Shown here: piece by piece, positions 39,001 through 45,000 of the stretch
How positions within the stretch are numbered: the first letter of the stretch is position 1
How the letters are laid out: every line of letters begins with the position of its first letter
DNA from: Escherichia coli
Lineage (GTDB): Bacteria > Pseudomonadota > Gammaproteobacteria > Enterobacterales > Enterobacteriaceae
Strand: one strand, 5' to 3'
DNA: 64,000 nucleotides
NCBI RefSeq assembly: GCF_030013595.1
Contig: NZ_CP122768.1
Program-made: the position numbers

Positions 39001-42000
39001 TCATCAACGGTGATGCCGTTACGGCGGTTTTCGGCCAGCAGGGTAGTAAATTCGTGGCCGGGTAAGCGGATGGCCTGGTTTTCGTCAGCGCGTTCAGCGG
39101 TAGTAACGTAATCCATGATGCGTTGCAGCTTGGCATCGCGGGTGGGGCCGTCGATCAATTTATCCACTTCGATGGCGATAAAGATTTGCGAAACGCCGTA
39201 TTCGTCGCTGTTGTCCTGGGTGACTTCGGCAACCGATGCGCCGTCGGAAAGGAGAGTGGCGATCATATCCAGCACAATCGACATGCCAGAACCTTTCCAG
39301 TAGCCCATCGGTAAAATGCGGCGATTCTTCTCGATAACGCCAGGTTCTTTGGTCAAATTGCCCTCATCATCAAAGCCACCATCGACCGGGAGCTGACGGC
39401 CTGCCAGACGGTTAACTTCTAACATGCCGTAAGAGAACATCGACATCGACATATCGACCATGGTGATTGGGGTAGAAGGAATGGCGACGATCAGCGGGTT
39501 GGTGCCGATGCGACACTCTTTTGCGCCCCACGGCGGCATTACGGCGATGGAGTTGGTCCAGCAAATGCCAATATAGCCTTTTTCCGCCGCCTGCCAGCCG
39601 TAGCTGCCGCCGCGCATCCAGTGGTTGGCATTACGTAGTGCCACCAGACCAATACCATGATCGGCAGCCAGTTCGATGGCGCGATCCATCATCTTTTTCG
39701 CTGTCAGGTTACCGATCGAACGCTGGGCGTCCCACTGTTCAATTGCGCCGAGGCTGGTTATACGTTTGGGTTGGGCATCAGGAATGATATCGCCGTTTTC
39801 CAGTTGTTGAATGAAACGAGGGAAACGGTTGACGCCGTGAGAATAAACGCCGGATTCGGTGGTGCGGGCGAACATCTCGGCACAGGCATCAGCCGTTTCG
39901 CTGTCAACGCCGCGTGAAATTAAGACTCGATTAAAGGCTGCTTTTAACTGCTCAAATGTCACTTTCATCCCTGGCTTCCTTGTTTTTTTGATCGCTTTTT
40001 TGGCTTAAAATTTCAATATACGAAATCTGATTTCAAATATATCGATCGCTTTTTAACAAAGCAATCTGATTGATGAATTTCAAAAAACTTAAAAATCAAT
40101 TGGTTATAAATTATCTGTCGAGATCGTGAACTACGACACACTTTGCGCTACCATCAGGACGCGACAAAATGGGGAAAGAAGTGATGGGAAAAAAAGAGAA
40201 CGAGATGGCGCAGGAAAAAGAGCGTCCAGCCGGAAGCCAGAGTCTGTTTCGCGGGTTGATGCTGATTGAGATTTTGAGCAATTATCCAAACGGTTGTCCG
40301 TTGGCGCATCTTTCGGAACTGGCTGGTTTAAATAAGAGTACCGTCCATCGCTTATTGCAGGGATTACAGTCCTGCGGCTATGTGACCACCGCGCCCGCCG
40401 CAGGGAGTTACCGCCTGACTACCAAATTTATTGCCGTCGGGCAGAAGGCGCTGTCTTCGCTGAATATCATTCATATCGCCGCTCCGCATCTTGAGGCACT
40501 GAACATCGCCACTGGTGAAACCATTAACTTTTCCAGCCGCGAAGACGATCACGCTATTTTGATTTATAAGCTGGAACCCACAACCGGGATGCTGCGAACC
40601 CGTGCCTATATAGGCCAGCATATGCCGCTCTACTGTTCCGCAATGGGCAAGATCTACATGGCGTTTGGTCACCCGGACTATGTGAAGTCATACTGGAAAA
40701 GCCATCAGCATGAGATCCAGCCGTTAACCCGCAATACCATTACCGAGCTGCCCGCGATGTTCGACGAACTGACGCACATTCGTGAAAGTGGAGCGGCGAT
40801 GGACAGAGAAGAAAACGAACTCGGCGTCTCCTGTATTGCTGTTCCGGTGTTTGATATTCATGGGCGGGTGCCGTACGCCGTGTCGATTTCTCTTTCGACA
40901 TCACGTCTGAAACAGGTGGGGGAGAAAAATCTCCTGAAACCACTGCGTGAAACCGCGCAGGCTATTTCTAATGAACTGGGATTTACTGTCAGGGACGACC
41001 AGGGCGCGATCACATAACGCTTTGGACAAGTGCCAAAACTTTAACATTTCCTTCGTTGGATCAAAGCAGTAGAGACGCGCTCTCTGGCACTCTGCTGTTT
41101 TAGTGCAAAGGAGTGATCATGAACCGGTTTATTATTGCGGATGCGACGAAATGTATCGGTTGCCGTACCTGTGAAGTGGCTTGCGCAGTGTCGCATCAGG
41201 AGAATCAGGATTGCGCTGCGTTGTCACCAGACGAGTTTATTTCCCGTATTCGTGTCATTAAAGACCACACATGGACCACGGCTGTAGCCTGCCATCAGTG
41301 TGAAGATGCACCGTGCGCGAATGTCTGCCCTGTTGACGCGATAAGCCGCGAACATGGGCATATTTTCGTTGAACAATCACGTTGCATTGGCTGTAAAAGC
41401 TGTATGCTGGCTTGCCCGTTTGGTGCGATGGAGGTCGTTTCTTCGCGCAAAAAGGCGAGGGCGATTAAGTGCGATCTGTGCTGGCATCGGGCGACGGGAC
41501 CGGCCTGTGTTGAAGCCTGCCCGACAAAGGCGTTGCAGTGCATGGATGTCGAGAAAGTGCAGCGGCATCGGCTACGGCAGCAGCCTGTTTGAAACGTTTT
41601 TCCGGCGTTTCTCAACGCAGGGATAGTGCGCTTTGTTTATGCCGGATGCGGCTAAAATGAACTGCACCCCAAATGTTGGACATAATCTGACATCTGAAGG
41701 TGCAGTTTATGAAACATTCATTTGAAGTAAAACTTGCCGCTGTAAATCATTACCTGGCTGGTCATGCAGGCATCATTTCTACGGCAAAACTCTTTCAACT
41801 TTCTCACACCAGCCTCTCACACTGGATTAATCTTTTTCTTCTTCACGGTCCTCGTGCACTGGATTGCAGACACAAGCGTAGCTATTCTCCTGAAGATAAA
41901 CTTTGCGTGGTTCTTTATGCTCTCGGGCATTCTGAGTCTCTACCCCGGGTAGCTGCCCGGTTTAACATTCCCAGCCACAACACGGTTAAAAACTGGATAA

Positions 42001-45000
42001 AAGGCTACCGCAAATCTGGTAATGAGGCCTTTATCAGGCGCAGGAAGGAGAAAAGCATGACCCGTTCTGATGATACCCATGAAAACGAGGCAAACATGAC
42101 GCCGGAAGAGATGAAGAATGAGCTGCGTTATCTTCGCGCAGAAAATGCATATCTGAAAGCCATGCAGGAGCATCTCCTGGAAAAAAAGCGCCAGGAGCTG
42201 GAGAAAAAACGAAAGTCATCCGGAGCCTGAGGTGCGGACACTGCCAGTCTGACCTGTTAAAGGCTGCAGGGCTGGCCAGAAGCACGCTGTACTACCAGCT
42301 GTCACTGCAGAAGGCTAAGGACAAGTATGCTGATGTGAAACAGCTCATAGCCTCCATCTTCCATGAACACCGGGGATGTTATGGGTACCGGCGGATCCAT
42401 TGTGAGCTTCAGAAAAGAGGTCTTAAGTTCAGTGGCAAAACGGTGCGAAAACTGATGCAACAGCTCGGCCTGAAGTCTCCTGTGCGCCTGAAGAAATACC
42501 GGTCTTACCGGGGAAATATGGGACTCGCTGCAGAAAATATCCTTCAGCGGCAGTTCAAAGCGGAAGCTCCCTGTGAGAAATGGGTGACAGATATCACCGA
42601 ATTCAGGGCTGGCGGACAAAAACTGTACCTGTCCCCGATACTTGATTTGTTTAACGGGGAAATCGTGGCGTGGGAAACTGCCTGCAGGCCTACAGAGGAG
42701 CTGGTGAAGCGGATGTTAAATAAGGGGCTGGAAAGCCTTGCTGAAGGGGAGAAACCGCTGCTCCACAGTGATCAAGGATGGCATTACCGGATAAAAAGTT
42801 ATCAGTCCGCCCTGGCGGACAGAGGGTTAGTGCAGAGCATGTCGCGCAAGGGCAACTGCCTTGATAATGCGGTAATGGAGAACTTCTTTGGTCACCTGAA
42901 AGAAGAAATGTACTATCGCCGGGACTACAGAAATGTAGAAGAGCTGGAAAATGCCGTTAACGAATACATAACTTACTGGAATCAAAAAAGAATAAAACTC
43001 AGTCTTGGGGGACTCAGTCCGGTAGAATACCGGACTGAGCATCAAAAAGCCGGTTAACTGAAACTGTCCAGGTTTTGGGGTTCAGTTCAAAACGCCTTAT
43101 CCGGCCTACAAATTCTACCAAATTCAATATATTGCAGAAATCATGTAGGCCTGATAAGCGTAGCGCATCAGGCAATTTTTAGTGACTTTCAGCCCAGGCT
43201 CTTTCTATCTCTTCTGCCAGAATCTTCACTCCCGCCTCAATTTTCTCCGGCTCCGGCACGTAGTTCATGCGCATACATTGATGTGTATGTGGCCACGGTT
43301 TATCCAGCCCTGGGAAGAAGTTGTGCCCCGGCACCATCAGCACGCCCCGTGCTTTCAGGCGCTGGTAGAGCTGCTCGGTCGTAATTGGCAAATCCTTAAA
43401 CCATAGCCAGAGGAAAATGGCTCCTTCCGGTTTATGAATCAGGCAGCGATCTTCCGGTAAATAGCGGCGAATGATGGCGATAGTTTCCTGAACACGCTGG
43501 TAGTAAAACGGTTTGATGACTGTTTCAGACAGGCGCAGCAGATCGTTACGCTTAATCATTTCACTCATCATCGCCGGACCAATACCGCCAGGTGCCAGGC
43601 TGATAATGCCGTTCATATTGGTGATGGCGGTGATGATTTTTTCATTGGCGATGATAATGCCGCAGCGGGAGCCTGGTAGACCCAGCTTGGAAAGACTCAT
43701 GCACAGCACGATATTCGGATTCCATAGCGGGCGCGCTTCGCTGAAGATGATACCCGGGAACGGGACGCCATAAGCGTTATCAATCACCAGCGGAATGCCG
43801 TGTTGATTCGCCAGCGCGTCAAGCTTCAGCAACTCTTCGTCAGTAATCACATTGCCTGTTGGATTCGTCGGCCGGGAGACGCAAATCATCCCGGTTTCTT
43901 CGCCAATATGCAGATGCTCAAAATCGACGTGGTATTTAAACTGGCCTTCCGGCAGCAGTTCAATATTCGGACGCGCAGAGACAAACAGATCTTCTTCCAG
44001 TCCGGCGTCAGCGTAGCCAATGTATTCCGGTGCCAGCGGGAACAGCACTTTTTTGACCCGACCATCGGCACGGCGTCCGGCAAACAGATTAAATAAGTAG
44101 AAAAACGCGCTCTGGCTGCCGTTTGTTAGTGCAATATTCTGTGGTTCGATATCCCAACCCAACTTCTCGCGCAGCATTCCGGCAAGCAGTGTGAGTAGCT
44201 CCGTTTTCCCCTGTGGACCGTCGTAATTGCACAGTGCATCAGTCGCTTTGCCACTTTCCAGCATGTCGGTCAGTAGCGTCTGGAAGTAGTCCTGCATTTC
44301 CGGGATCTGCGCTGGATTACCGCCGCCGAGCATAATCGCGCCAGGCGTGCGTAAACCGTCGTTCAGATCTTCCATCAGCAGCGTAATGCCGGAGTGGCGG
44401 GTAAATTTGTCACCAAAAAGGGAGAATGTCATAGCGGGATATCTGTCGAACTCTGTAGCAAGGAAGGTAACAATAACGCTACATTTGCTGGGGTGCAAAT
44501 CGCTCTGTTGAAGAGGGAGCGGTGCTTTATCCTGCAACGCTGATTAGAGCTGACATTTTATCCTGGTTGGCGGCTTCCCGAGGTACTGACGAACGGGAAG
44601 CCGGAAAAGTCACTGTTGCCCAGCCCAGATGACCAGCACTTTATCGTCGCCATGCTCACGAACAAAGCCGTAGCCCTGCTTCAGCGAAAGTGTCGTTTGT
44701 TTGCCCGCGCCAATTGCGGGATGGCGGGCGCGAAACTGGCTGATTTTCTGCCAGTGCGCGACGCTGGCGGCAGATTTACCGCTAACATCCTGCCAGTTCA
44801 TATCCGAACGCGTACCTTGCAGCGGATCCGAACCGGTGGGGCCGAACGGACGCGAGGATTCATCACCATAAAAGATTTGTACCGCGCCTGGCGCTAATAA
44901 TAATAACTCTGCTGCTTTGTCGCCCCCTTCACGGAACAGGCGGGTATCATGCGATGAGAGGTAGCTCAACACGTTGAAATCCTGCAATTTCTCCGCCATT

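Follow-up and report, generated by a model that had tools for sequence, protein, structure and literature searches.

The window analysed here, a stretch of 64,000 nucleotides of Escherichia coli DNA (assembly GCF_030013595.1, contig NZ_CP122768.1), carries an insertion sequence (IS) of 1432 bp between the genes ysaA and avtA. This element is almost certainly a complete IS1397, an IS3-family member with a DDE transposase, which transposed into the apical loop of the ysaA-proximal repetitive extragenic palindrome (REP) of the ysaA-avtA bacterial interspersed mosaic element (BIME). The insertion is a lineage-specific polymorphism, and the palindrome that it splits has been hit independently at least five times.

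The split REP and its empty site

The empty site was rebuilt by removing positions 41658-43092, that is, the IS together with one AAA, which left a sequence of 600 nt. Four E. coli genomes (e.g. strain A10) have exactly this sequence (100% identity) as their unoccupied ysaA-avtA interval, and it was found at a coverage of at least 80% in 5368 of the 5426 complete E. coli genomes used throughout this work. Since the rebuilt site matches real empty sites over its whole length, the immediate flanks of the element (left, TGCCGGATGCGGCTAAAA; right, AAACGCCTTATCCGGCCTAC) are a single sequence split by the IS, the reconstitution of the REP is real and not a chance resemblance, and the insertion is polymorphic. 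The exact restoration of a real site by the loss of one AAA also sets the target-site duplication at 3 bp, AAA: the empty site GGCTAAAACGCC has four A, and the occupied one four plus three. An earlier note, made from the sequence alone, had anticipated that the flanks rebuild one REP, that a short A-rich duplication lies at the junctions and that the insertion is foreign to the K-12 interval, and it had proposed the reconstruction of the empty site as a check. All of this was borne out, the last point by K-12 MG1655, which has the same pair of REPs between avtA and ysaA, with the loop GTAAAC and without any IS. The parts of the site are as follows.

41640-41657, plus strand: left half of the split REP (TGCCGGATGCGGC) with the loop bases TAAAA; joins the right half in empty-site genomes
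41655-41657, no strand: left copy of the target-site duplication, AAA, from the empty-site comparison
43090-43092, no strand: right copy of the target-site duplication, AAA, from the same comparison
43093-43109, plus strand: right half of the split REP (CGCCTTATCCGGCCTAC), contiguous with the left half in empty-site genomes
43110-43144, no strand: linker between the two REPs of the BIME, conserved in K-12
43145-43173, minus strand: second REP (GTAGGCCTGATAAGCGTAGCGCATCAGGC), intact and inverted, forming an inverted pair with the tail of the first REP

The restored REP reads TGCCGGATGCGGCTAAAACGCCTTATCCGGCCTAC and shows two loop-proximal differences from the E. coli REP31 example TGCCGGATGCGGCGTAAACGCCTTATCCGGCCTAC, taken from the supplementary material of Tobes & Pareja 2006 (PMC1525189). 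It is an extragenic imperfect palindrome, consensus-like and located between convergent genes, and as single-stranded DNA it folds into a hairpin with the run of A in the apical loop (-9.6 kcal/mol, z = -3.1). The split REP is the ysaA-proximal member of the BIME, and the avtA-proximal one, inverted and intact, lies 35 nt to its right. This arrangement of two alternating REPs with a short linker, with the same layout in K-12, folds in the empty site at -27 kcal/mol (z = -6.6). The linker to the right of the IS also matches the Rfam small RNA ES036 (CssrF) at 43110-43152 on the plus strand (38.9 bits, a marginal match next to the gathering score of 37.6); this Rfam family may have been built from a BIME linker motif, with no distinct small RNA gene behind it.

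The element and its ends

Read directly from the sequence, the element starts at 41658 with TGAACTGCACCCCAAA... (in longer form TGAACTGCACCCCAAATG...) and finishes at 43089 with ...TTTTGGGGTTCAGTTCA (in longer form ...GGTTTTGGGGTTCAGTTCA). Its terminal inverted repeats are imperfect, with arms of 25 nt that are 84% complementary. In a scan of the window, a 16-nt terminal motif was found with 0 and 1 mismatch at the two ends of the element only, the chance expectation being 0.69 matches per window when up to 3 mismatches are allowed. A third site with 2 mismatches (17953-17968, plus strand) was judged to be a chance match; it lies inside an open reading frame of 378 residues for a membrane-fusion-type protein (16970-18106), without any feature of an IS. 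The terminal T and A are bases of the element, as other insertions in the same REP show: their left junctions read ...C|TGAAC and their right junctions GTTCA|TTAA. The base adjoining the terminal A in strain GF131 is a T, which fixes the termini as TG...CA. A length of 1432 bp was found in all 12 distinct complete insertions examined, and this size, together with the imperfect inverted repeats and the 5′-TG...CA-3′ ends, is that of IS3-family elements (about 1.2-1.6 kb). So are the duplications of 3 or 4 bp, represented by AAA here and by either length in the other copies examined.

41658-43089, plus strand: IS1397, complete copy with TG...CA termini; DNA 100% identical to two copies and 99.9% to many others
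41658-41682, plus strand: left terminal inverted repeat, from an inverted-pair search and end-to-end comparison
43065-43089, minus strand: right terminal inverted repeat, from an inverted-pair search, the end-motif scan and end-to-end comparison
41709-42230, plus strand: orfA, 173 residues, an N-terminal IS3-family protein of helix-turn-helix/leucine-zipper type, from its open reading frame, translation and NF033516 match
42182-42188, plus strand: slippery heptamer A_AAA_AAG in the orfA frame, a putative site of -1 programmed frameshifting, read from the sequence
42188-43057, plus strand: orfB part of the OrfAB transposase, -1 frame, with the DDE catalytic core, from Pfam and NCBIfam matches

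Transposase genes

The gene orfA runs from an ATG at 41709 to a stop at 42230, and its protein matches positions 1-90 of NF033516 (transpos_IS3). Near its end, the codons GAA AAA AAG at 42180-42188 hold the canonical X_XXY_YYZ heptamer A_AAA_AAG, which would be the -1 programmed frameshift site that gives OrfAB. The -1 frame stays open from the heptamer to a stop at 43057, so that base 42188, read twice, yields a fusion of 449 residues; the RefSeq coding sequence at the identical locus of strain HCP5S3_I2 is likewise a join of two pieces labelled 'programmed frameshift'. The orfB part matches the Pfam domains HTH_21 (3e-17), rve (3e-21) and rve_2 (1.3e-20), and it scores 329.8 bits against NCBIfam NF033516, 'IS3 family transposase', whose curated cutoff is 160. 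The catalytic residues of the fusion could be placed at D295 (WVTDIT), D355 (LHSDQG) and E391 (AVMENF), with K398, a spacing of D-59-D-35-E with the lysine at E+7. Overlapping orfA and -1-frame orfB genes with an A6G-type site, and an rve DDE transposase above the curated threshold, place the element in the IS3 family. The earlier note had recognized the approximate size, the imperfect terminal repeats, both frames and the family, and had called the element IS1397-like; all these claims stand, the last one in a sharper form given below.

Identity and spread of IS1397

A megablast search with the 1432 bp found IS1397 matches in 3485 of the 5426 genomes, and full-length copies in 1707. The places where the element matches number 7615 in these 3485 genomes, with a median of 1 per genome. 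The best matches are 99.9-100% identical over all 1432 bp, and all of those listed are annotated as 'IS3-like element IS1397 family transposase'. Judged by this RefSeq naming and by its behaviour, the window element is IS1397 itself and not merely a sequence resembling it. The loci ysaA-avtA, ygcP-ygcQ and yihN-ompL of different strains all carry an annotated transposase with one and the same protein accession, WP_100190663.1, and its presence at three loci is consistent with recent mobility. The window copy is intact and probably active; its whole reading frames, its inverted repeats and this occurrence of the same protein at three loci are consistent with activity. In two urinary isolates, BH100 and BH100N (NZ_CP025251.1 / NZ_CP025703.1), the places with IS1397 number 34 to 40 or more per chromosome, which, against a median of 1, indicates a strong expansion of the element in these strains.

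Independent insertions in the ysaA-avtA REP

A query spanning the junction found 22 genomes with IS1397 in the orientation of the window, and a chimeric query with the reversed IS found one more, BH100, so that the REP is occupied in 23 of the 5426 genomes. The junctions can be written as left flank / IS / right flank.

Window and HCP5S3_I2: GGCTAAAA / IS / AAACGCC; duplication AAA; window orientation
EcPF15: GGCTAAAAC / IS / AACGCC; duplication AAC; window orientation
K_EC180: GGCTAAA / IS / AAAACGCC; duplication AAA; window orientation
GF131: GGCTTAA / IS / TTAAACGCC; duplication TTAA (4 bp); window orientation
BH100 (positions 1752-3183 of locus L019): GGCTAAAAC / IS / AACGCC; duplication AAC; reversed, the sole such case found at this REP

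These junctions are the product of at least five independent insertions inside a loop span of 3 nt, four in the orientation of the window and one reversed. The left-junction match of LCP30S3_I5 is identical to that of the window, and porcine ETEC/O139 genomes share the same 299-nt junction match as K_EC180. Both complete genomes that have the window's junction unchanged come from pig isolates of a single UK site. A strict specificity of orientation, as the first four insertions seen (4/4 alike) would have it, was rejected, because the copy of BH100 is reversed in this same REP and that of yihN-ompL is reversed with respect to its own.

Repeated insertion confined to 3 nt of a loop that is unusually rich in A (TAAAAC in place of GTGAAC) invites the idea that the ysaA-avtA REP is a preferred hot spot of IS1397. 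If this were true, the sequence of the loop would modulate the choice of target, and natural polymorphisms could map the target rules of the transposase at single-nucleotide resolution. Such a preference seems doubtful and is not claimed here: given 7615 IS1397 places and several hundred REPs per genome (a table in PMC1525189 counts 209-290 per E. coli genome), five events in one REP are no clear excess over expectation.

Three pig isolates from Japan (EC556, EC571 and EC581) have nothing more than a helix-turn-helix fragment annotated under the left junction at this REP. Of these, EC556 was examined (L006, NZ_AP027440.1, locus 1849-3699): there an IS66-like element, ISCro1, interrupts IS1397 after about 260 bp, forming a nested IS.

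IS1397 at other loci

Seven further loci were sampled: yvcK-uvrB, yfeS-cysM, yshB-hemN, tkt-prohibitin, mgtA-ridA, ygcP-ygcQ and yihN-ompL. All seven carry an IS of 1432 bp at the centre of a REP, with a duplication of 3 or 4 bp; as five of them were found by similarity to the left junction, the sample is biased by construction with regard to orientation but not with regard to the location at the REP centre. The copy at ygcP-ygcQ sits in a REP of the GCCTGATGCG type, and the one at yihN-ompL has the opposite orientation relative to its REP. The supplement of PMC1525189 gives one more example, a copy in CFT073 at GCGGCGTG|AACGCC. Insertion into the central part of the palindromic unit, as known for IS1397, was found at the window site, at seven other loci and in five events in the loop of the ysaA-avtA REP, in line with the statement in the earlier note that this element enters REP/BIME loops of E. 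coli.

In a comparison with the left flanks of other IS1397 loci (L007-L012), about 20 nt before the REP (GCGCTTTGTTTAT before GCCGGATGCGGC; window 41625-41657) are also kept at several unrelated REPs occupied by IS1397, those of yvcK-uvrB, yfeS-cysM, tkt and mgtA. The conservation of this upstream flank indicates that the repeated unit at these four loci reaches past the stem of the REP, a comparison biased by the choice of the loci through similarity to the same flank.

Mechanism and alternative explanations

A pathway for the insertion can be drawn from the established biology of the IS3 family and from published work on IS1397. It would start with the translation of orfA, and an occasional -1 slip on A_AAA_AAG would produce the OrfAB transposase. 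The element would then be copied out, or excised, as a circle with abutted ends and pasted into a new location (copy-out/paste-in). In this last step OrfAB would recognize the REP and cut its centre with a stagger of 3-4 nt, whose repair would leave the AAA duplicated.

The window copy could instead be a different REP-targeting element of the IS3 family, such as ISKpn1 or an unnamed relative, that merely resembles IS1397. RefSeq naming does have a threshold, as seen from the yfeS-cysM copy of strain GF4-3, annotated just as 'IS3 family transposase', and the name IS1397 was reached here through RefSeq-named copies rather than by comparison with the ISfinder type sequence. However, the DNA of the window copy is 100% identical to a copy that RefSeq names as IS1397 family, shares the length of 1432 bp with all other copies and targets E. 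coli-type REPs, as published for IS1397, which makes a look-alike very improbable. Against the identification of a complete IS1397 transposed into the REP loop weigh this same limit of the name, the fact that frameshifting, circle formation and present-day activity of the window copy are things that we infer, and the failure to detect a frameshift-stimulating RNA structure 3′ of the slippery site, the fold of 42176-42290 being no better than its shuffles (z = -0.84). No evidence contradicting the insertion of IS1397 into the REP loop was found.

A second possibility is that the REP-like flanks belong to the mobile unit, or that they come from recombination between two REPs adjacent to IS copies. 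REPs are described in PMC1525189 as recombination substrates, and several other loci with IS1397 resemble the left flank for about 33 nt (query positions 118-150). Beyond the REP, however, the flanks at other loci differ; in the window the joined flanks minus AAA are, base for base, the intact empty site present in 5368 genomes, a clean direct duplication of 3 bp surrounds the element, and the gene order yiaJ-ysaA-IS-avtA-malS is collinear with that of K-12. A mobile flank or a REP-REP exchange is in this way effectively refuted, and the transposition of IS1397 into an existing REP stays as the explanation.

Neighbouring genes and host consequences

41119-41592, plus strand: ysaA (4Fe-4S protein), intact upstream neighbour, from the RefSeq annotation of the identical locus L001 and its open reading frame
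43179-44432, minus strand: avtA (valine-pyruvate transaminase), intact convergent downstream neighbour, from the RefSeq annotation of L001 and its open reading frame

No coding sequence is interrupted, the stop codons of ysaA and avtA lying 65 nt and 89 nt from the IS, respectively. Of the two hairpins 3′ of ysaA, the ysaA-proximal REP now has 1.4 kb between its arms, and an effect on the stability of the 3′ end of the ysaA mRNA can be speculated. Farther away in the window, Rfam matches to the sok antitoxin RNA (61902-62053, plus strand; 124 bits) and to the thermoregulator of the cspA 5′ untranslated region (62336-62763, minus strand; 501 bits) are those expected from the hok/sok-cspA neighbourhood of the E. 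coli chromosome.

Relation to known systems

The insertion of IS1397 into REP loops is already known, from work published in 1997-2003, and the present finding is correct but ordinary. The studies of this element are reportedly those of Bachellier et al. 1997, Clement et al. 1999 and Wilde et al. 2001, 2003. The window offers a clean natural example of the targeting of REP loops, adding little beyond annotation, together with a strain-specific polymorphism that is usable for lineage typing. Only one descriptive point is mildly new, namely the five or more independent hits on the ysaA-avtA REP, and these recurrent insertions illustrate both the precision of the target (±1 nt) and the tolerance of either orientation.

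According to passages of PMC1525189 and PMC3184786, experiments have shown the insertion of IS1397 to be specific to REPs, with the specificity set by its transposase; the former paper cites Clement 1999 and Wilde 2001, 2003 for these experiments. The window element agrees with IS1397 in its sequence of 1432 bp (99.9-100%), in the layout of orfA and -1-frame orfB, in the duplications of 3-4 bp and in its location at the centre of an E. coli REP, or palindromic unit. Nothing of substance separates the two; the ysaA-avtA site itself is occupied in just the 23 genomes mentioned above and is empty in K-12. ISKpn1, an IS3-family element of Klebsiella pneumoniae, also targets the centre of palindromic units according to both papers, but prefers those of Klebsiella type (PMC1525189), whereas the window element lies in an E. 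coli-type REP; the two are set apart by this description and by the RefSeq name. Finally, IS621 is described in the same two sources as using E. coli REPs as insertion targets too. In contrast to the window element, with its rve DDE transposase, TG...CA inverted repeats and insertion into the loop, IS621 belongs to another family (IS110), follows another chemistry, lacks inverted repeats of the IS3 type and, as reported in PMC3184786, enters the REP on its 3′ side, beyond the stem formed by the inverted repeats.

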